A stretch of DNA of 64,000 nt from positions 64,001 to 128,000 of the IMG/VR virus record IMGVR_UViG_3300037424_000434; one strand, given 5' to 3'. Source of the DNA: a virus. Taxonomy: Duplodnaviria; Caudoviricetes. The notes under the pieces are model-generated. The model saw only the letters and a list, made by a program, of their open reading frames with translations. It searched no databases and had not been told where the DNA came from. Shown piece by piece: positions 44,678-53,805 of this stretch (positions are counted from its first letter, which is position 1; the number at the start of each line of letters is the position of its first letter). Made by a program: the position numbers and the translations under genes.

Positions 44678-45526
44678 GTGTCTAATATCACATCAAAACA
44701 AGAAGCATCTAATAAGTTCAACGAGACTCTATTATTTAAAAAATGTAAACTTCTATCTACATATAAAAATAATAGAACACCTGTTGATTTGGAATGTATA
44801 AACGGTCACATATTCAAGAAAACCCCTTCTGATTTTAGACGAGGGAGTGGGTGTCCTAAATGTTCCGGTAAATGTCCCGAACAGGCTAAAATCAATTTCG
44901 TTGAATTATTAAACAAAGAAGGTTATGATTTGATCTCTCCTTATGTAAAAGCATTATCATGTGTCAGTGTTAGATGTTCAGTTGGTCATATTTTTGATAT
45001 GAGGCCTAATAACTTTAAAATGGGTCATAGATGTCCTAAGTGTGCGGGACTGTGTTCAGAACAATCAAAAGAACATTTTATCATAAATTTAAAAGATAAT
45101 GGATATGAATTACTATCAAAATATATAAACATTTCAACTAAAGTGAACCTGAAATGTCCAGAGGGTCATATATGGAAGGTTACACCTAATGATTTCAAAA
45201 ATGGTAACAGGTGTCCTCATTGTTCTGGTTCTACCGGACAAAGAATGTTACAAGAAATGTTATTAGGTCACATCAAAAGTCCAGTAATCTACAATGACCG
45301 TAAGACATTAAATGGTTTGGAATTGGATATCTATTATCCAGAATTAAATATAGCTATAGAATACCAAGGTAATTACTGGCACAACTTACCAGAAAAAAGA
45401 GAAACAGACAGAAGAAAGAAAAGTATATGCAAAGAAAAGGGTATAAAATTATTGGAAGTATGGGATAGTGATTTTTTAAAAAACAAGGATGTTGTTGTTG
45501 ATAATATAATTAAGGAGATATTATGA
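44678..45526 (+). CDS. Free-standing endonuclease: tandem Zn-ribbon repeats plus a Vsr/DUF559-like domain
   Basis: Three CxxGH...RCPxC repeats; LELDIYYPELNIAIEYQGNYWH; own late promoter at 44641. Confidence 0.8.
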   Translation: MSNITSKQEASNKFNETLLFKKCKLLSTYKNNRTPVDLECINGHIFKKTPSDFRRGSGCPKCSGKCPEQAKINFVELLNKEGYDLISPYVKALSCVSVRCSVGHIFDMRPNNFKMGHRCPKCAGLCSEQSKEHFIINLKDNGYELLSKYINISTKVNLKCPEGHIWKVTPNDFKNGNRCPHCSGSTGQRMLQEMLLGHIKSPVIYNDRKTLNGLELDIYYPELNIAIEYQGNYWHNLPEKRETDRRKKSICKEKGIKLLEVWDSDFLKNKDVVVDNIIKEIL

Positions 45527-46926
45527 TATTAGGAGTTGTTGATGGTACCTCCATAGAGAAACTTACAAATGGTAGCCAGAAAAAAATTATATTTGAGTGT
45601 GATGTTTGTCATGATAAAGTAGAACAATCATACCGTAATTATTTAAAACAAAATAACGGAAAATTTTGTAGAACCTGTAGAAATACACATACATCCAATA
45701 GACCAGATGTGAAGAAGAAGATATCTGATAATAGTACAAAAATGTGGTTAAATCCCTCTCATAGGAAAAAAATGGTTGAAGATGGTCTTATATCAAGGGC
45801 CGTTAAAAAATCTTGGAATAATGGCAGGAAACCAATAAATAATATTTTTGTAGAGAACACCACAAAAAAACGGGAATTGATTGAATTGGTTAATGGACTT
45901 GGATATGAATATATTAATTCATATATTAGAAAAAATAATGGAACGTGTATTAAAGTAAAATGCAAAGAAGGTCATATAACAATAAAAAGATTGTGTTCCA
46001 TTAGATCAGGCAAAATATTATGTGTTGAATGTTGTAAACATTTTTCTCAAGCAGAACGAGATTTATCTAATTATATAAAATCTCTTGGTTTTGTTGTAGT
46101 GGAAAACGATAGGACAATCATCAAACCATTAGAGTTGGATATTGTTATTCCTGAAAAGAAAATAGCGATTGAATATTGTGGTTTGTTTTGGCATGGAGAA
46201 ACCAAAGGCAAACACAATAAATATCATCTTAACAAATTGGGGAAATGTGAGTCGGAAGGATATCGACTAATAACCATATTTGAAGATGAATGGGCTAATA
46301 AACAAGATATTGTTAAGTCTAGATTGAAGTATATATTAGGTCAAGGTGGGAGAACGGTATATGCTAGACAATGTGTTGTCAAGGAGATATCACCAAAGAT
46401 AGCCAATACATTTATCAACAAATACCATTTACAAGGTTCAACGGGTAGTTCTATTAAATTAGGTCTTCATCACAACGGTGAACTGATTGCTGTTATGACA
46501 TTTGCAAAACCATCAATATCAAAAGGCAAAAAGTCATTTAATGATATATATGAATTATCAAGGTTTTGTTCTTCCTGTCAGGTTGTTGGTGGGGCGTCAA
46601 AATTATTATCCCATTTCAAGAAAAATTATGAATGGAATGAAATATTTACTTTTGCTGATTTAAGATGGTCGGAAGGTAATCTATATAAGCAGATAGGGTT
46701 CAATCACACAGGGGAGACAAAACCTAATTATTGGTATTTCAACACACAAAAACTAGGTGTGAGTAGGAAGCACAGATTTAATTACAGAAAAGACAGATTA
46801 CCATCTCTGTTTGGTAATGTTGATATGTCTATGACCGAATGGCAAATCATGCAGTCTCAGGGATTTGATAGAATATGGGATTGTGGAAACTTACGATATA
46901 AAATAACCAATAATGTGATTGGATGA
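45523..46926 (+). CDS. Putative homing endonuclease: Zn ribbon, Vsr-like domain and C-terminal conserved phage domain
   Basis: CDVC...CRTC; LELDIVIPEKKIAIEYCGLFWH; YARQC...ELSRFCS...GGASKL...FADLRWS...RIWDCG. Confidence 0.75.
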   Translation: MILGVVDGTSIEKLTNGSQKKIIFECDVCHDKVEQSYRNYLKQNNGKFCRTCRNTHTSNRPDVKKKISDNSTKMWLNPSHRKKMVEDGLISRAVKKSWNNGRKPINNIFVENTTKKRELIELVNGLGYEYINSYIRKNNGTCIKVKCKEGHITIKRLCSIRSGKILCVECCKHFSQAERDLSNYIKSLGFVVVENDRTIIKPLELDIVIPEKKIAIEYCGLFWHGETKGKHNKYHLNKLGKCESEGYRLITIFEDEWANKQDIVKSRLKYILGQGGRTVYARQCVVKEISPKIANTFINKYHLQGSTGSSIKLGLHHNGELIAVMTFAKPSISKGKKSFNDIYELSRFCSSCQVVGGASKLLSHFKKNYEWNEIFTFADLRWSEGNLYKQIGFNHTGETKPNYWYFNTQKLGVSRKHRFNYRKDRLPSLFGNVDMSMTEWQIMQSQGFDRIWDCGNLRYKITNNVIG

Positions 46927-46934
46927 ACTGACGC

Positions 46935-46964
46935 AAAAAGGAGCCTCGAAAGGCTCCTTTTTTT
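46935..46964. terminator. Bidirectional terminator between convergent units
   Basis: AAAAGGAGCC-TCGAAA-GGCTCCTTTT. Confidence 0.85.
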
Positions 46965-47015
46965 ATGTAATGTTTTTATGGAAATAAATAGTTGTTATAT
47001 TAGGTGTTTAGACGA

Positions 47016-47330
47016 CTAATTCTCAACACGGTCAAAAACTTTGATCATACTGTGATCATAACCGCAAAGATTTTTGACAGCGTTGCCGAAGCGAGAGTCA
47101 CAGGTTCCCGCGTAATTTCCGCCAGACATTACCCAGTCATCCTGATTTTTAACAGGAACTAATCTCATACTATTCATTGGGCCAACCCGTAATTCGACCG
47201 CAGGATAATCTTCACTGGGTTCAAACGGCCCATCAACGTTGATAACAGTAAGACCTTTGGCATATTTGGAAACGCCATTGTTCGTACAGTCCCCGAGTGG
47301 ATTACGGTAGATCGAAAGATGTAAACCCAT
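47016..47330 (-). CDS. Conserved phage hypothetical protein
   Basis: GGAG RBS before MGLHLSIYR; DCTNNGVS...GGNYAGTCDSRF; promoter TTGATT-N17-TATGGT upstream. Confidence 0.7.
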   Translation of the reverse strand: MGLHLSIYRNPLGDCTNNGVSKYAKGLTVINVDGPFEPSEDYPAVELRVGPMNSMRLVPVKNQDDWVMSGGNYAGTCDSRFGNAVKNLCGYDHSMIKVFDRVEN

Positions 47331-47400
47331 GATTAACTCCTTTGTTTGGTTGATTGTAAATACACCATACCACAGATTCCTCGACGAATCAAGCACAAAA

Positions 47401-47721
47401 TCAAAATCCTTCGATGATCAATACTTTTTGTTCATCTGTTAGTTTGGATCTACTCCTATCTGCACATTCATATATTGGATATTTTTTTATTGTGACAAAA
47501 ACACAGGTAGCGGGTAGATCGACTTCGTACATATACGAAGCATCTAAATAGTACGTCCAACTTCTCCAACCTTTACTGTTCATCATTTTATACACTGTCC
47601 CTTTATATGCGGGACAGGTTACCTGCTCAAGTTCTATTGGATACCAAAAATAATCCACTCTTGATGTATTATCAGGAGCACATCCAATCACCAACAACAC
47701 AAAAAATATTAAAAATTTCAT
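47401..47721 (-). CDS. Putative lipoprotein
   Basis: GGAG RBS; MKFLIFFVLLVIG-C lipobox-like signal. Confidence 0.6.
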   Translation of the reverse strand: MKFLIFFVLLVIGCAPDNTSRVDYFWYPIELEQVTCPAYKGTVYKMMNSKGWRSWTYYLDASYMYEVDLPATCVFVTIKKYPIYECADRSRSKLTDEQKVLIIEGF

Positions 47722-47732
47722 ATTTTCTCCTT

Positions 47733-47948
47733 TTAATATTTTTTCCCAAACAACTTGTTGTATTCGGTCATGTGGGCGATAGAAAAGTCTTCGCATGATC
47801 TATTCTCATCTAACGCATCAAAGTCATAGGCGATGGACCACATACATTTTAGATCAATAAACGAATCAAGATAAGAAACAGCCTCCGCGTGATCCTCTAT
47901 ATTGGCAATCAACTTCACTTCATCCAGAACTTCCTCATAGCTTCTCAT
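47733..47948 (-). CDS. Hypothetical protein
   Basis: GGAGG RBS before MRSYEEV. Confidence 0.6.
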   Translation of the reverse strand: MRSYEEVLDEVKLIANIEDHAEAVSYLDSFIDLKCMWSIAYDFDALDENRSCEDFSIAHMTEYNKLFGKKY

Positions 47949-47961
47949 GATTCCCTCCTTT

Positions 47962-48867
47962 TTAAATTCCATTAGATTCGACAGGCGTATTTTCAGCCTG
48001 ATTTTTCTTCTTTCTACCACCTCTTGCACCGTAAGCATTGAAACAATCACTGAACTTTTGTTTTTTTCTATCCAAAAACAAAGTAGAATTACTTGAATAA
48101 ATGTAATTGAAGAATGCTTTTAATTTTTCTACCCCATGAACCCTCAACTTAAAAACTTTTCCATACGGTATGATTTTTCCCTCAACACAGCTATACTCAA
48201 CAATCTTTGACAAAACGTCTTCTGTCCCTACAATAACAATTTCACTTGAATATGAATCCTTACGATTATCTTTTGAATAGCTGACACAACCATCTCCATC
48301 AAAATAACCTCTAATGAAATCAGAATAAAACTCCGACTTTAGGTTATGTGGAAATTGATTTGTAAAAGTTTTTCTCTCCGTTAATCCATACTCTAATGGC
48401 GTAACAGAAAAATTACTAAGCGAAACTCGAAGCTGGTAATTCTCTAAACCGCTCATATTTTTACCCGCCTTGCAAATACTTAGGTCAGAACACATCGAAC
48501 TTTTTATCTTTTCAAGTATATCTTTATCAATCAATTTTAACGATACCTGACCTTTTGTTATACAACCGTCAGCACTCAACAATCCCAAAACATAAGCCAT
48601 ATCGCTTGATTGAATTTTAAAATAGTCCTTATTGATTTCAATTCTTGGATTGCCCTGACACCCTCTTGAACAGTAACTTCCACGATTGGGGTTTTGATTC
48701 AATCGCCACTGTGGAATATAAAACTCCCTTCCGCATGATAAACAAGTTTTTAAAATACCACTCAACGGACGACCCCCTTTTTTGCCATTCTCACGAGAAG
48801 AATTTGCTTTTTTATTGGTCTTTATAGAACCTAAATATGACATTGTTTTTTTAATTTCATTATTCAT
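47962..48867 (-). CDS. LAGLIDADG homing endonuclease, C-terminally fused to the displaced tnpA tail
   Basis: YVLGLLSADG and FIRGYFDGDG motifs; N-terminal CLSC...CSRGC finger; ends YGARGGRKKK. Confidence 0.85.
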   Translation of the reverse strand: MNNEIKKTMSYLGSIKTNKKANSSRENGKKGGRPLSGILKTCLSCGREFYIPQWRLNQNPNRGSYCSRGCQGNPRIEINKDYFKIQSSDMAYVLGLLSADGCITKGQVSLKLIDKDILEKIKSSMCSDLSICKAGKNMSGLENYQLRVSLSNFSVTPLEYGLTERKTFTNQFPHNLKSEFYSDFIRGYFDGDGCVSYSKDNRKDSYSSEIVIVGTEDVLSKIVEYSCVEGKIIPYGKVFKLRVHGVEKLKAFFNYIYSSNSTLFLDRKKQKFSDCFNAYGARGGRKKKNQAENTPVESNGI

Positions 48868-48873
48868 ACACAT

Positions 48874-48902
48874 AGTATAACCTATCTGTTAGGTTTTGTC
48901 AA
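48874..48902 (-). promoter_or_regulatory. Sigma70-like promoter of the inserted LAGLIDADG gene
   Basis: TTGACA-N17-TATACT; ATG at 48867 lies 7 nt downstream. Confidence 0.8.
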
Positions 48903-49460
48903 GTCTTTTTTGTAATATCTTGCTGAATAACAGGTGAGTATTTTCATAATATCCTCTGCTAATTCTTCTTCATATTTCTTCTCTTTGGTTTCTATTATCT
49001 CAACTTCAATTTCAAGATTCGTAAAAATTGCATCAAGGTATTCATAACCAAATCGTGCAAGTCTGTCTTTATATTCAATCAATACTCGTTCAACCTTACC
49101 TTCAAAGCACATCTTGATTAACTTGTGTATGCCGTTCCGCTTCTCATTTATGCCGCTGGCAATCTCATCAATCAAAACGTACTTATAATCTTTGGTTTCT
49201 GCGTGTTTTCTTAACCTGTCTTTCTGCCGTTCAAGATTCTCTTTTTGTTTTGCCGTTGAACATCTTGCGTAAATCACAGTCAACTTTTCTTGCTTCTCTT
49301 TCTCGACCCCCATGTAAGCATCTAAATCTTCTTGGCGAAAACGCCGATGCTCACCAGTAGTCTTGAAAGACTTTATCTTTCCGTTGTTAGCAAGCGTCTT
49401 GAGAGTGTTTATTGACACCCCAAGATAATCGCTTGCTTCTGTGATTTTATAGATTTTCAT
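48882..49460 (-). mobile_element. tnpA: IS607-family serine recombinase TnpA, 3'-interrupted, no tnpB
   Basis: MerR-like HTH (ASDYLGVSINTL...GEHRRF), VIYARCS...QKENLERQ, DEIASG, EYKDRLARFGYE, EELAEDIM.I...YSARYY. Confidence 0.9.
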
Positions 49461-50155
49461 ACGCTATACCTAAACAACTTTTCTATTGCCTTTTTACTTC
49501 CTGTGTTTTTAGTAAGGCTACTATTCACTTTTTTTTCCCAAACACATTTAAAATCATTCGGGGCATTATATTCACTTACAAATACAATGTGTCCTTCATT
49601 TTCTCTATCTCTACACCACTGCCAAAATTCCACATGATTAAAATCCATAGCGTATTTAGTAACCCCACCATACGGTGGGTCGCAATAAATCAAACTATTT
49701 TCAGGTATTTGTAAATTTAAATAACTTTCATTTACCAATCTAACACCATTCAATCGTGGGCTTTGGTTTATTGCATTTTTATAGCTTTCCTTCACATAAT
49801 CTCGTTTATTTAAACTATCCCTACACCATCCTCCAAGCCATTTACCACTATAACTGAAAGCAAACCCAGCATAGCCTTTGTATTTGTAATTATCGCTTTT
49901 TCGCAGCTCCTTATAGTTTTCTTCAGTAAACTCTTTGTTGTTTTTAGGTAGTTGAGTCACACAATCTCTAATTGCAATCAAGGCATCAATTAAATAAGGG
50001 TTAATGTCAGCCCCTATTCGTTTGCCTTGCACTTTGTCAATCATGTTTGCGCCGCCTACAAAAGGCTCCACCCAGAATTGTTCAGGGTTTCTTTCCGCAA
50101 GCATGATTGGCAGAATGTGCTTCGCTATTCTATTTTTGCTTCCCATGTATTTCAT
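49457..50155 (-). CDS. DNA adenine methyltransferase (Dam/D12 class)
   Basis: YMGSK, EPFVGG, DIN, IYCDPPY, FVSEY. Confidence 0.9.
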   Translation of the reverse strand: MKYMGSKNRIAKHILPIMLAERNPEQFWVEPFVGGANMIDKVQGKRIGADINPYLIDALIAIRDCVTQLPKNNKEFTEENYKELRKSDNYKYKGYAGFAFSYSGKWLGGWCRDSLNKRDYVKESYKNAINQSPRLNGVRLVNESYLNLQIPENSLIYCDPPYGGVTKYAMDFNHVEFWQWCRDRENEGHIVFVSEYNAPNDFKCVWEKKVNSSLTKNTGSKKAIEKLFRYSV

Positions 50156-50787
50156 TGTCTTTCAACTCCTTAATTAATTTCTCGTTTGCATCCACAATCT
50201 TCTGCATATCCTCAACAGATATTTCTTTTTCCAAAGGCTCGAAGAAATAAACCTTTTCGTCCTCTGTCTGGAAATACTCTTTCGTTACGTTGATGACTTT
50301 CATATTTCACTCCTTAAGTATACACTATTTCTGGTTAAAAAAGCAAGTGATTTTAACCGATTTCTTTTGATTTTGTTGGATTTTCATAAGCAGTTAAAAC
50401 CTCCTTTTTGTTTTTGTATTATTAGAAAATACTCAATAATTCTTTAAACGCTCTTCGTATTTTAATAGTTGGTTTGTGTAATTTCTTCTCTGACAATACC
50501 AACACTCATAGATGACTCATTGTTTGATGTGTTCCTTATTACAGTTACATAGTACTATAGGTTACTTATAAAATCAATAGAAAAGAATTAAAAAATAGCT
50601 TCACATCATCTTTTATCCTACGGAGAAAGAAAGGACTCCTCAACTACGTTTCGTCATCCTTTCTTTCAATTAATTTTCTTAAATTTACATAAATATGAAT
50701 GAAGGTGAAAAGATAATAGGCAAAAAAAGAGCTTAAATGGGTGTATAGGTAACTTCAACATATATTCAACTTTTCATATATGTTATA

Positions 50788-50851
50788 CTATTATTAATCT
50801 ACCTTTGTCGTTTATAAACGATAGTCTACACCAAAAAACTCAATATGTCAA
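50788..50851 (-). promoter_or_regulatory. Sigma70-like promoter plus conserved 40-nt element, copy B (antisense to the terS leader)
   Basis: TTGACA-N17-TAGACT then ATCGTTTATAAAC..CAAAGGTAGATTAATAATAG; matches 21471..21536. Confidence 0.7.
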
Positions 50852-50867
50852 CTAGGAGAATCATAAA

Positions 50868-51404
50868 ATGTCGGAATACGGTGAAGACCGAGCTAACTCA
50901 CAAGTCAACGAATCCATTCTTGAACAAGAGTTTAATTTGAATACAGCAGATAGAAGACAAGACGAACTTGATCAGATACGGGCTATGAGATTGCAGTTGG
51001 ATGCAATTGACGGAGAAGACCCCGATGATATCCTATATAAAAACATCGAGAGGGCTAACACCCTACTGGATACCGCACAACAAGCAACTGAAAGAGGGGG
51101 TGAAACTAATGCTCGTCTATACGAGGTCTGCGCTCAGCTTATCAATGCAATCACTACCGCTGCAAGTTCAATACAGACAGGTGCCTTTGGAAATTTAAAA
51201 CATGAGTATAATATGAAGATGCTTGAGGTCAAAGAAAAAGAACTCGTTGTCAAACAAGCCATTGCCCAAGGAAAACTCATGGGCGCAGTACCCTCCACGG
51301 GGGGTGTTGTTGTTATGAGTCGGGAAGACTTGTTGAAGATGATTGACGAAGATGTAAAGGAGGTTCAAATAGATTCTGCTACACAAAATACTAACGAAAA
51401 TTAA
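50868..51404 (+). CDS. terS: Terminase small subunit (gp16-like)
   Basis: AGGAG RBS; NARLYEVCAQLINA and MSREDLLKMI resemble T4-like gp16; upstream of terL. Confidence 0.75.
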   Translation: MSEYGEDRANSQVNESILEQEFNLNTADRRQDELDQIRAMRLQLDAIDGEDPDDILYKNIERANTLLDTAQQATERGGETNARLYEVCAQLINAITTAASSIQTGAFGNLKHEYNMKMLEVKEKELVVKQAIAQGKLMGAVPSTGGVVVMSREDLLKMIDEDVKEVQIDSATQNTNEN

Positions 51405-51424: not shown

Positions 51425-52609
51425 ATGAAGAAAAATTATGTTCTGGATACAAATGTACTATTAGAAAATGAGAATTGTATTAAGATTTTAAGGAATGGAG
51501 AAGAGAATGGTATATACATTCCTGCCACAGTTATTGAGGAACTGGACACCCTAAAGAGAGACAAAAGAAAGAGACATCAGGTCATGAGAGCTATACACGC
51601 TCTCAGTGAATACAAAGACTATATCACCATTATACATAATGGCACTAAACATGAATCCCCTGATAACTTTATCCTAAAAGAAATTCAAGCCAATATCGAT
51701 AAGATAGAGAATCCCATATTCGTGACAAATGATAATCTTCTACGGTTTAAAGCAGAAAAAATGAACATACCCTCCGAAGATTTTAAAGATAGCAACCCAT
51801 TCCAATCAGAATCCCAGAGATATACAGGGTTTGTTAATGTAGATGACGGTGAAATCTTGGAAAAGAACTGTTACTATTGGAAAGAAGGAAAACTGCATTT
51901 CAACAATCATTACGGTGAAGAGAGTTTGGTTGTTGACAGAGAAGTATGGAAGGTCGCTCCTCGCAGCCAATACCAAAAAGCAGCAATGGATCTGATCATG
52001 AATGATGATATTGATCTAGTAACAATCCAATCTGAGGCAGGCTTTGGGAAAACATATTTGACCCTTGCTGCAATGTTTGATCAGGTGTTTGAAAAGAAAA
52101 AATTTAAAAAGATTTTTGTATTCAAAGCAAACATCGAAATTGGAAATGAGCTTGGATTTTTGCCGGGAGATGTGGGGGCAAAAATGTATCCATATTTTCG
52201 ACCTATCCAAGATTTAATGGAAAAGCTCCATGATCTTCGACCAGCCAATAGAGCATGGGAAGACCCAACAGAAAACACTCCATTACTTAATCGCAAATGT
52301 GTTGAGATGTTGCCGATCAATTTCTTGAGGGGCATGAATATCGATAACGCTATTGTTCTTATAGACGAAGTTCAAAATCTAAGCAGAGACGAATTGAGAA
52401 CAGTTCTTTCTCGTATGGGGGAGAATGTTAAGGTCATTTGTACAGGTGACGTTAGACAAATAGATAATATCCATTTAAATCAAGAGAATAATGGATTGAA
52501 TTGGATGGTGAGACTGTTTAAAGGGCAAGATAATTATGGTCATATAGTGCTTGGAGGCAGTAAATCAAGGGGTCCAATAGCAGATTTAGTGCGCGAAACA
52601 AAATTATAA
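51425..52609 (+). CDS. phoH: PIN-PhoH protein
   Basis: PIN YVLDTNVL; AGFGKT, GFLPGD, INFLRG, LIDEVQNL, VICTGDVRQID. Confidence 0.93.
   Translation: MKKNYVLDTNVLLENENCIKILRNGEENGIYIPATVIEELDTLKRDKRKRHQVMRAIHALSEYKDYITIIHNGTKHESPDNFILKEIQANIDKIENPIFVTNDNLLRFKAEKMNIPSEDFKDSNPFQSESQRYTGFVNVDDGEILEKNCYYWKEGKLHFNNHYGEESLVVDREVWKVAPRSQYQKAAMDLIMNDDIDLVTIQSEAGFGKTYLTLAAMFDQVFEKKKFKKIFVFKANIEIGNELGFLPGDVGAKMYPYFRPIQDLMEKLHDLRPANRAWEDPTENTPLLNRKCVEMLPINFLRGMNIDNAIVLIDEVQNLSRDELRTVLSRMGENVKVICTGDVRQIDNIHLNQENNGLNWMVRLFKGQDNYGHIVLGGSKSRGPIADLVRETKL
52515..52573 (+). repeat. phoH 3' segment, duplicated at 53656..53714
   Basis: 53/59 nt identical by manual alignment. Confidence 0.9.
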
Positions 52610-52619
52610 TATCACACGA

Positions 52620-53708
52620 TTGGATCAATGTCTAGATATGAAAATAGATTATTCGCATAGATTCAGGGATAACGTTGAACTTGTTGGATACGAAATGATA
52701 GGAGAATATGTTAATAGTAGTGTTCTTGTGAAATTAATATGTGATAGTGGTCATATATTTTCAATTAGACCAAATAACTTTAATAATGGACAACGTTGTT
52801 CTGTGTGCTCAGGGAAGAACAGAGAATATGCAAAATCCTCTATGGTCGAGTTGTTATATAAAGAGGGATATATGCACAAATCTGAGTATATAAACTCCAA
52901 TACAAAAATGAAATTACTTTGTCCAGAAAATCATGAATGGAACGTAACCCCGAACGATTTCAAAAAAGGAATTAGATGTCCTAAGTGTGGGAACAAGTGC
53001 AAAGAACAATCTAAACAAGATTTTATTAATTTGGTGGAGGAGTGTAGTTATACATTGCACGAAGAATATACTGGAGTGATGAATCGAGTGCTATTAGAAT
53101 GTGATAGAGGCCATAAATATAGAACAAGACCAAACGATTTTAAAAAAGGTTATAGGTGTAAAAAATGTTATACCGAAAACGTTATACAAAAATCCTTTGA
53201 AGGTTTTAAATTTATATTAAATGAGAATGGATATAAATTGAAAGATGATTATATAAATTCGACGACAAAAATATACATCATATGCCCCGAAGGTCATGAT
53301 TGGTATGTAGCTCCAAATGATTTTATTAACCACAATACACGTTGTCCCCATTGCCAAGGAAGTTCTGGTCAGAGAAGATTACAAGAATTTCTGACAAAAC
53401 ATATAGACAGAGATGTAGTATACAATGACCGCAAGACACTAGATGGATTGGAATTAGATATATACTATCCTGATCTAAAAATAGCAGTGGAATATCAAGG
53501 TGATTATTGGCACACACTACCAATGGCCCTAATAAGAGATAAAAGAAAAAGAATGTTATGCGAGAAAAAGAACATAAAACTAATAGAAGTATGGGAAAAA
53601 TATTATGTTACAGATGAAGATAATATAAACAATGAAGTGTTGGAGAATATAAAATTGTTTAAAGGTCAAGATACTTATGGTCATATAGTGCTTAGAGGCG
53701 GTAAATAG
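52620..53708 (+). CDS. Free-standing Zn-ribbon-repeat/Vsr-like endonuclease ending in a PhoH-derived tail
   Basis: Four CxxGH/NH...RCxxC repeats; LELDIYYPDLKIAVEYQGDYWH; ends LFKGQDTYGHIVLRGGK. Confidence 0.8.
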   Translation: MDQCLDMKIDYSHRFRDNVELVGYEMIGEYVNSSVLVKLICDSGHIFSIRPNNFNNGQRCSVCSGKNREYAKSSMVELLYKEGYMHKSEYINSNTKMKLLCPENHEWNVTPNDFKKGIRCPKCGNKCKEQSKQDFINLVEECSYTLHEEYTGVMNRVLLECDRGHKYRTRPNDFKKGYRCKKCYTENVIQKSFEGFKFILNENGYKLKDDYINSTTKIYIICPEGHDWYVAPNDFINHNTRCPHCQGSSGQRRLQEFLTKHIDRDVVYNDRKTLDGLELDIYYPDLKIAVEYQGDYWHTLPMALIRDKRKRMLCEKKNIKLIEVWEKYYVTDEDNINNEVLENIKLFKGQDTYGHIVLRGGK

Positions 53709-53805
53709 AGGGGTAGACGGTAGACGGTTTTTAATAGAGAACATACAAAATAAAATAAAATAAAATAAAATAAAGTATTAGGGAAGGTGTGTTATTGCAG
53801 GTAAT

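Follow-up and report, generated by a model that had tools for sequence, protein, structure and literature searches.

How does a phage gene lose its last codons to the gene that follows it? The question is raised by two adjacent open reading frames (ORFs) in the genome of an uncultured jumbo phage, represented by a 235,765-bp IMG/VR virus record (IMGVR_UViG_3300037424_000434) that is rated 98% complete. We analysed bases 64001-128000 of this record, a stretch of 64,000 nucleotides that is called the window here. The first ORF encodes a predicted IS607-family serine recombinase and ends ...TCYSARYY, followed by KKDLTKPNR and a stop codon. The second encodes a LAGLIDADG endonuclease, in which ...FNAY precedes GARGGRKKKNQAENTPVESNGI and the stop lies at 47962 (C-terminus of the LAGLIDADG_3 ORF as listed: ...FNAYGARGGRKKKNQAENTPVESNGI). 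A first-pass annotation had proposed that the endonuclease gene was inserted into the recombinase gene and carried off its tail, and both the reconstruction of the gene and the empty loci described below bear this out. The locus is very probably a free-standing 881-bp LAGLIDADG homing endonuclease gene inserted in coding sequence, with neither an intron nor an intein and with a promoter-like leader of its own.

For comparison, 79 related viral loci were aligned with the window by blastn, and a protein search with the recombinase returned 535 relatives, 120 of which were listed and read for their tails. The uninterrupted alleles that the annotation had proposed to look for were found among the protein relatives and at 60 of the 79 viral loci. 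At these loci 48912 directly abuts 48034, with a 3-4-nt overlap, and blastn homology with all of them resumes in the captured tail and stops at ~47954, just past the stop codon. Deletion of 48031..48911 in silico gave a recombinase ORF of 205 aa, which is the modal length of the homologues. The annotation had proposed this deletion with TAC at both edges; the restored tail stands, and the repeat at the edges is in fact the 4-nt TTAC (minus strand; GTAA on the plus strand) at 48031-48034 and 48912-48915. Within these 4 nt the boundary can be placed in any of five registers, with an identical result in each. The insertion point lies between codons 183 and 184, within the nearly invariant motif SARYY/GARGGRKKK (the slash marks the insertion). 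With a length of 2 mod 3, the insert shifts the frame by +2. Its first 30 bases provide the nine junk codons and the stop of the recombinase (TAG at 48882-48884), and only 44 of its 881 bases are non-coding, namely those before the endonuclease ATG, from which the ORF occupies the remainder.

The restored tail is identical to that of an uninterrupted metagenomic homologue, P0003, and differs by one residue from that of P0001, an uninterrupted protein to which the recombinase allele of the window is 98% identical. More than 90 of the 120 listed homologues run on as ...SAR[YF]YG[AR]RGGRKKK, the type of ending that the annotation had predicted for uninterrupted homologues, and most finish ...ESNGI. 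The NCBIfam model NF033518 extends to recombinase residue 190, beyond the insertion point. Judged by these alignments, the 22-residue tail belongs to the recombinase by origin. In more distant LAGLIDADG relatives the protein finishes 5-15 residues past an RKKxKF motif, about where the endonuclease proper ends here; the endonuclease gene thus lacks a stop codon of its own and borrows that of the host gene. After this stop, the sequence TAAAAAGGAGG is found in an uninterrupted locus (L021) and in two endonuclease-bearing loci (L171 and L172), and another uninterrupted locus (L006) has TGAAAAGGAAG. Beyond this ribosome-binding site the downstream coding sequence is not conserved between loci.

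The site of insertion could also be placed on known structures. In an alignment with solved structures, the YG-x-R motif of the recombinase (YGARG) aligns with YGMRS of the ISC1926 transposase TnpA (6DGC), and in IS607-family structures GMRS/GRRG forms a four-residue turn that splits helix E (PMC6188088). By this alignment, the insertion falls exactly at the helix-E turn, the most conserved motif of the C-terminal region. The coordinates of the locus are collected in Table 1.

Table 1. Features of the interrupted recombinase locus and of its immediate neighbours, in window coordinates.
Feature	Position	Strand	Remarks
Truncated recombinase ORF	48882..49460	minus	192 aa: 183 native residues and 9 foreign codons, then stop
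Native recombinase part, codons 1-183	48912..49460	minus	HTH_17/MerR PF12728 and Resolvase PF00239 (Pfam)
KKDLTKPNR and TAG stop	48882..48911	minus	Foreign codons, given by the 5' end of the insert
Insert, 881 bp	48031..48911	minus	Absent from 60 uninterrupted viral loci
Promoter-like leader, TTGACA-N17-TATACT	48874..48902 (5' end 48902)	minus	Ends 6 nt before the endonuclease ATG
Endonuclease proper, residues 1-279	48031..48867	minus	Pfam PF14528 in two stretches
Last 22 recombinase codons and stop, now endonuclease residues 280-301	47962..48030	minus	Tail matches P0003
Next downstream gene (MRSYEE...)	47733..47948	minus	AAGGAGG ribosome-binding site right after the recombinase/endonuclease stop
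D12-class N6-adenine DNA methyltransferase	49457..50155	minus	Pfam PF02086, TIGR00571; TGA overlaps the recombinase ATG

The same junction is present in independent JGI and Logan assemblies, which rules out an assembly artefact. Close relatives of the endonuclease form seven protein clusters (P0121-P0127; 76-100% identity) and represent five lineages at 76-86% identity, and the next relative is 40% identical. These close relatives came from the protein collection only, and a scan of the viral contigs with the endonuclease returned nothing above 36% identity. Wherever the C-terminus is present (P0126 is cut short), P0122-P0127 end in YGARGGRKKK followed by the tail variant of the local recombinase allele. 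In L171, from a different JGI sample, the recombinase reads ...SARFY/RKNLTKPN and is followed by the same leader and endonuclease. On a 2,713-bp JGI contig, a 190-aa recombinase ending YYKKILDKS (P0009) lies directly upstream of the endonuclease P0125; it is identical to the uninterrupted P0013 at 179 of 183 positions, and the tail of P0013 is one residue off that of P0125. The insertion is therefore a presence/absence polymorphism at one precise site of the host gene: 60 loci are empty, and the window, L171 and the P0009/P0125 contig carry occupied alleles. Occupied and empty forms thus coexist in two separate allele lineages, that of the window with P0001 and P0003 and that of P0009 with P0013, which is the pattern expected of homing or of cycles of gain and loss. 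The endonuclease is rare: its clusters have ~26 members, whereas uninterrupted recombinase sequences number in the thousands, which puts it in roughly 1% of alleles by cluster membership.

The ratio of nonsynonymous to synonymous substitution rates (dN/dS) was calculated for both partners. Across four lineages the endonuclease core gave a dN/dS of 0.07-0.11 at a dS of 0.9-1.7. This is strong purifying selection at high divergence, and it points to a working protein that has long been associated with the insertion site. In the window, the truncated recombinase is 3-4 residues away from its closest empty relatives (dS 0.30-0.54, dN/dS 0.02-0.03) and has only two unusual residues; over the uninterrupted alleles compared, its native part gave a dN/dS of 0.02-0.04. 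Such absence of decay would fit either a recent insertion into the window allele or a truncated protein that is still constrained.

The short leader of the insert is conserved as well. The pattern TTGACA-N17-TATAMT occurs once in the 64-kb window, against 0.03 occurrences expected, and the leader is kept in three lineages, those of the window, L171 (TATATT) and L163, where the two hexamers are retained together with the 17 nt between them and the 6 nt that separate the element from the ATG. The junk peptide encoded there is not conserved: its equivalents read RKNLTKPN in L171, KKDIDKT in L163 and KKILDKS in P0009. The promoter-like element that the annotation had placed within the insert is thus real as sequence. 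Because it ends 6 nt before the ATG, a transcript would begin at the ATG or right beside it, and the mRNA would thus be leaderless.

The endonuclease ORF was listed at 47962..48873, and homologues support the ATG at 48867, which gives a protein of 301 aa. Residues 1-80 form an extra module with an N-terminal helix, a basic GGRP stretch and a Cys4 zinc-ribbon-like hairpin, and residues ~80-280 form a double-motif LAGLIDADG core. D100/G101 and D192/G193 are invariant in an alignment of 48 homologues, so that the catalytic Asp residues are intact. A search of the PDB by sequence gave no match for the endonuclease. The AlphaFold model has a mean predicted local distance difference test (pLDDT) score of 84, with values above 88 over residues 80-280. 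In this model the last helix (266-282) spans the junction, and the rest of the captured tail scores 41-53. Foldseek matched the model at a probability of 1.00 to I-Tsp061I and I-AniI (the best matches), and also to E-DreI and the I-OnuI family. The model thus predicts a monomeric two-motif LAGLIDADG fold, pseudo-dimeric in its alpha-beta-beta-alpha-beta-beta-alpha arrangement. With I-Tsp061I (2DCH), I-AniI (1P8K) and the I-DmoI-derived E-DreI (1MOW) it has in common the fold, the two LAGLIDADG helices and the conserved catalytic Asp. In contrast to these three enzymes, to which it is merely 14-18% identical, it carries the additional 80-residue N-terminal module with GGRP and Cys4. Set against the solved LAGLIDADG enzymes, it is also free-standing with a host-derived C-terminus, rather than intron- or intein-encoded.

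The arrangement suggests how the insert may spread. The endonuclease ORF continues in frame through the remaining 22 recombinase codons and uses the recombinase stop. During mixed infection the enzyme would cut uninterrupted alleles at or near TTAC/GG, and repair from the occupied allele would copy the endonuclease gene in, which amounts to intron-less homing. Homing of this kind would keep the junction unchanged from lineage to lineage, and the captured tail with it. An occupied allele would itself be immune because its recognition site is split by the insert. The event is of a known kind, of which this locus is a clean example, and it involves no new mechanism. What the locus adds is an exactly known empty site, dozens of natural variants of that site and several diverged endonuclease lineages at one junction; together these are a ready-made specificity test set for a LAGLIDADG enzyme without a close relative of solved structure. 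It also shows what the insertion costs the host gene, namely a nearly invariant GARGGRKKK tail, lost from a truncated gene that is not decaying.

Several points weigh against this account. Cleavage, homing, use of the promoter and any effect on the recombinase are all predicted from sequence. The leader matches 11 of 12 consensus positions, but that consensus may not fit the promoter type of the host. The 28-bp site varies at synonymous positions, with 36 variants in 58 empty loci, so that many empty alleles may not be substrates. No shared co-conversion tract was found in the flanks of occupied alleles, whose divergence equals that of the endonucleases, and for this reason repeated homing is not separable from a long history of vertical co-descent in which the gene was occasionally lost. 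Finally, the sequence before the endonuclease ATG has been replaced in L163-L170 and in L172, which indicates that the unit also moves or persists by ordinary recombination at gene boundaries. Nuclease genes are described as marking exchange boundaries in phages (PMC10448857), in agreement with these rearranged relatives.

In L163-L170 the recombinase core is replaced by a Dam domain, which gives a 253-aa HTH_17-Dam protein, and this gene is followed by a 120-nt remnant of the 3' part of the recombinase gene and by the leader. In L172 (1-213) a different ORF with a CxxC zinc ribbon (...CKDCGRKFW...) abuts the endonuclease ATG, and neither the recombinase nor the leader is present. The captured tail is kept by the endonuclease in all of these relatives. 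Two further features were observed in the first group. The recombinase helix-turn-helix (HTH; residues 1-62) is joined to Dam PF05869 at L163:1419-2180 (also in L164-L169), so that one DNA-binding head is found with two different enzymes. At L163:2299-3087 (also in L164-L170) the space from the leader to the endonuclease ATG is exactly filled by an N6_N4 methyltransferase gene, whose stop overlaps that ATG. Either the endonuclease cassette can carry methyltransferase cargo, or the version in the window may have lost one.

Among the alternatives, the one that survives best is that the endonuclease is no longer homing, having been domesticated by the phage or having put its captured tail to use, for example in tethering to the truncated recombinase. 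We consider this unlikely. In its favour, strong purifying selection has acted on the endonuclease core even between deeply diverged lineages, the truncated recombinase shows no decay, and the fusion has stayed in frame in each of the five lineages, even across a one-codon indel beside the junction in P0125 and even where the recombinase core has been destroyed (L163-L170). Precedents exist as well: in solved IS607-family structures the post-turn segment packs against the pre-turn segment (PMC6188088), and in phage Aeh1 tails derived from the mobE insertion assemble the split NrdA (PMC3045599). However, homing alone preserves the junction, and the tails of occupied alleles are identical or nearly so to those of nearby empty alleles, so that their intactness needs no selection in the endonuclease. 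The captured tail is moreover short and modelled with low confidence, and an occupancy of ~1% of alleles is a poor fit to a useful fixed gene. A more specific and equally improbable proposal is that the captured basic tail, as the recombinase segment after the helix-E turn, pairs with the 183-residue recombinase or binds the same DNA, so that the two proteins form a complex. This would explain both the undecayed truncated recombinase and the in-frame tail in every lineage; it would mean that a split recombinase is held together via a selfish gene, or that an endonuclease is steered by a piece of a host protein.

Chance illegitimate recombination in a rearrangement-prone region, with a single landing followed by vertical inheritance only, is very unlikely. 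The 4-nt microhomology at the junction would suit such an origin, as would the variable regions on both sides and the breaks in the recombinase gene at many other points in other contigs. However, the occupied and empty forms in two allele lineages, each 98% identical internally, would need repeated gain or precise loss. The insertion also lies in the most conserved motif of the gene, which is typical of homing sites, and selection keeps the endonuclease functional.

Least likely is a self-splicing group I (or group II) intron with an endonuclease ORF, from which splicing would still yield the 205-aa recombinase. Group I introns with homing endonuclease ORFs are frequent in phage genes (PMC3943268), the insert sits at a conserved motif, as introns do, and the truncated recombinase is undecayed (dN/dS 0.03 at dS 0.30 against the nearest empty allele). 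The structure of the insert, however, is hard to reconcile with an intron: the 44 of 881 bases outside the ORF leave no room for a ribozyme core, the ORF continues into the 3' exon, no register of TTAC ends in G as the group I rule demands, and the start of the insert is not the GUGYG of the group II rule. Rfam scans of 46500-51000 (E<=1) and 47940-48960 (E<=10) returned only chance microRNA, snoRNA and sRNA matches. An intein is ruled out by the TAG stop, the frame shift (2 mod 3) and the absence of a Hint or intein domain in the Pfam search.

As an insertion into the recombinase coding sequence, the homing endonuclease gene can be compared with known systems. No paper joining a homing endonuclease of this type to an IS607-family recombinase gene was found in the literature. 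Among described cases the nearest is that of Aeromonas phage Aeh1, whose nrdA is interrupted by mobE, one of the 'genes in pieces' (PMC3045599, reviewed in PMC2988022). In both, a free-standing endonuclease gene splits a coding gene of a phage with neither an intron nor an intein, and short new tails arise at the break. However, MobE is an HNH enzyme and its insertion leaves two separately translated NrdA halves that reassemble via their new tails, whereas the enzyme in the window belongs to the LAGLIDADG family. Just 22 codons are severed here, and the 3' fragment, lacking its own start, is translated as part of the endonuclease and yields no separate polypeptide. Fractured genes, in which an endonuclease gene lies between split-intein halves (PMC2677866), likewise interrupt phage or environmental coding sequence and have their own expression signals. 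The insert in the window differs in having no intein halves, so that nothing rejoins the host protein.

In fungal mitochondrial genes, endonuclease genes insert close to the 3' end and supply the host gene with a replacement for its tail. A second tail capture of this kind was observed in the window at 52515..53714, where a 362-aa ORF with a zinc-ribbon array (52620..53708) follows phoH. This ORF terminates in a copy of the 3' end of phoH, 59 nt long and 90% identical (52515-52573 against 53656-53714). PhoH keeps its own tail intact, and a replacement end has thus been supplied, unlike in the recombinase. It would be a second endonuclease ORF ending in host-gene codons within one jumbo-phage genome. 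In the mitochondrial and phoH cases, as at the recombinase locus, the endonuclease ORF closes with what was originally the 3' end of the host gene and has been displaced. Replacement-tail elements, however, supply a recoded tail and leave the host protein whole, whereas the recombinase gets only nine junk codons.

The interrupted gene was also examined in its own right. The uninterrupted recombinase scores 187 bits against the NCBIfam model NF033518 transpos_IS607 (cut-off 110), its best solved relatives in the PDB are IS607-family catalytic domains, and it has the N-terminal HTH (PF12728) and the C-terminal serine recombinase domain (PF00239) by which a TnpA is recognised. We therefore assign it to the IS607-family serine recombinases on the basis of these matches. 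With the TnpA proteins of IS607, IS1535 and ISC1926 (6DGB, 6DGC; PMC6188088, PMC4058570) it shares the order of domains, an N-terminal winged-helix/MerR-like HTH, a catalytic serine recombinase domain and then helix E, and it keeps the YG-x-R motif. It differs from the transposases of this family after the helix-E turn, where it has a short basic tail in place of their second helix.

As the annotation had noted, no tnpB follows. A search for the TnpB domain PF07282 found none in the whole 235,765-bp genome, with controls that responded, and there was none among the downstream ORFs of ten uninterrupted loci sampled, whose downstream genes all differ. The lack of tnpB alone does not exclude membership of IS607, since tnpB is dispensable for transposition (PMC6188088). 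The ATGA overlap at 49457-49460 couples translation of the recombinase gene to that of the methyltransferase gene and leaves no left end for an element. A conserved 250-bp block upstream (50158-50405, with a 57-aa ORF) is present in most related contigs. Recombinase homology ends a few bases at most from the start and stop codons; the neighbours vary on both sides. Compared with IS607-family elements, the phage gene thus has no tnpB, is coupled to a methyltransferase gene within a conserved upstream neighbourhood, occurs in a single copy in the genome, and has no identified transposon ends. Since it is single-copy, ATGA-coupled, preceded by a conserved block and accompanied by no tnpB in this genome or in ten relatives, we would file the recombinase as a solo IS607-type gene in these phages, and nothing here ties it to a transposon. 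The further proposal that a selfish gene parasitises another in the position of tnpB did not hold in this form: the endonuclease gene lies inside the recombinase ORF, at codon 183/184, and these properties of the uninterrupted loci and of the recombinase gene speak against a tnpB slot. The idea that the endonuclease stands in for TnpB is not supported by our results.

Some additional rearrangements were observed at this gene and nearby. In L076-L082 (from 4001 in each), P0046, P0057, P0063, P0089, P0103 and P0106 the recombinase gene breaks off into unrelated sequence. A cluster of such breaks falls at residues 57-75, where the catalytic domain begins, with further ones dispersed after it (122, 131, 147, 159, 171 and 178); the breaks as a group could reflect a hot spot of rearrangement, or else chimeras formed in assembly, the gene being widely shared. 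At 49457..50405, the segment between the 50158-50405 block and the recombinase is swapped among loci, with lengths of 540-1250 bp, and holds the D12 methyltransferase in the window. Its variable content makes the segment next to the recombinase look like a methyltransferase cassette site. Only the methyltransferase part of the locus matches records in the phage collection, which thus contains no cultured relative of the locus. Elsewhere in the window, a 467-aa ORF (45523..46926) has N-terminal Cys-rich repeats, weak matches to Vsr/restriction-endonuclease-like domains (residues 178-268) and a Mom-family match over residues 285-410 (30.6 bits against a cut-off of 27.1). These matches suggest a possible fusion of a nuclease with a Mom-like DNA-modification domain.

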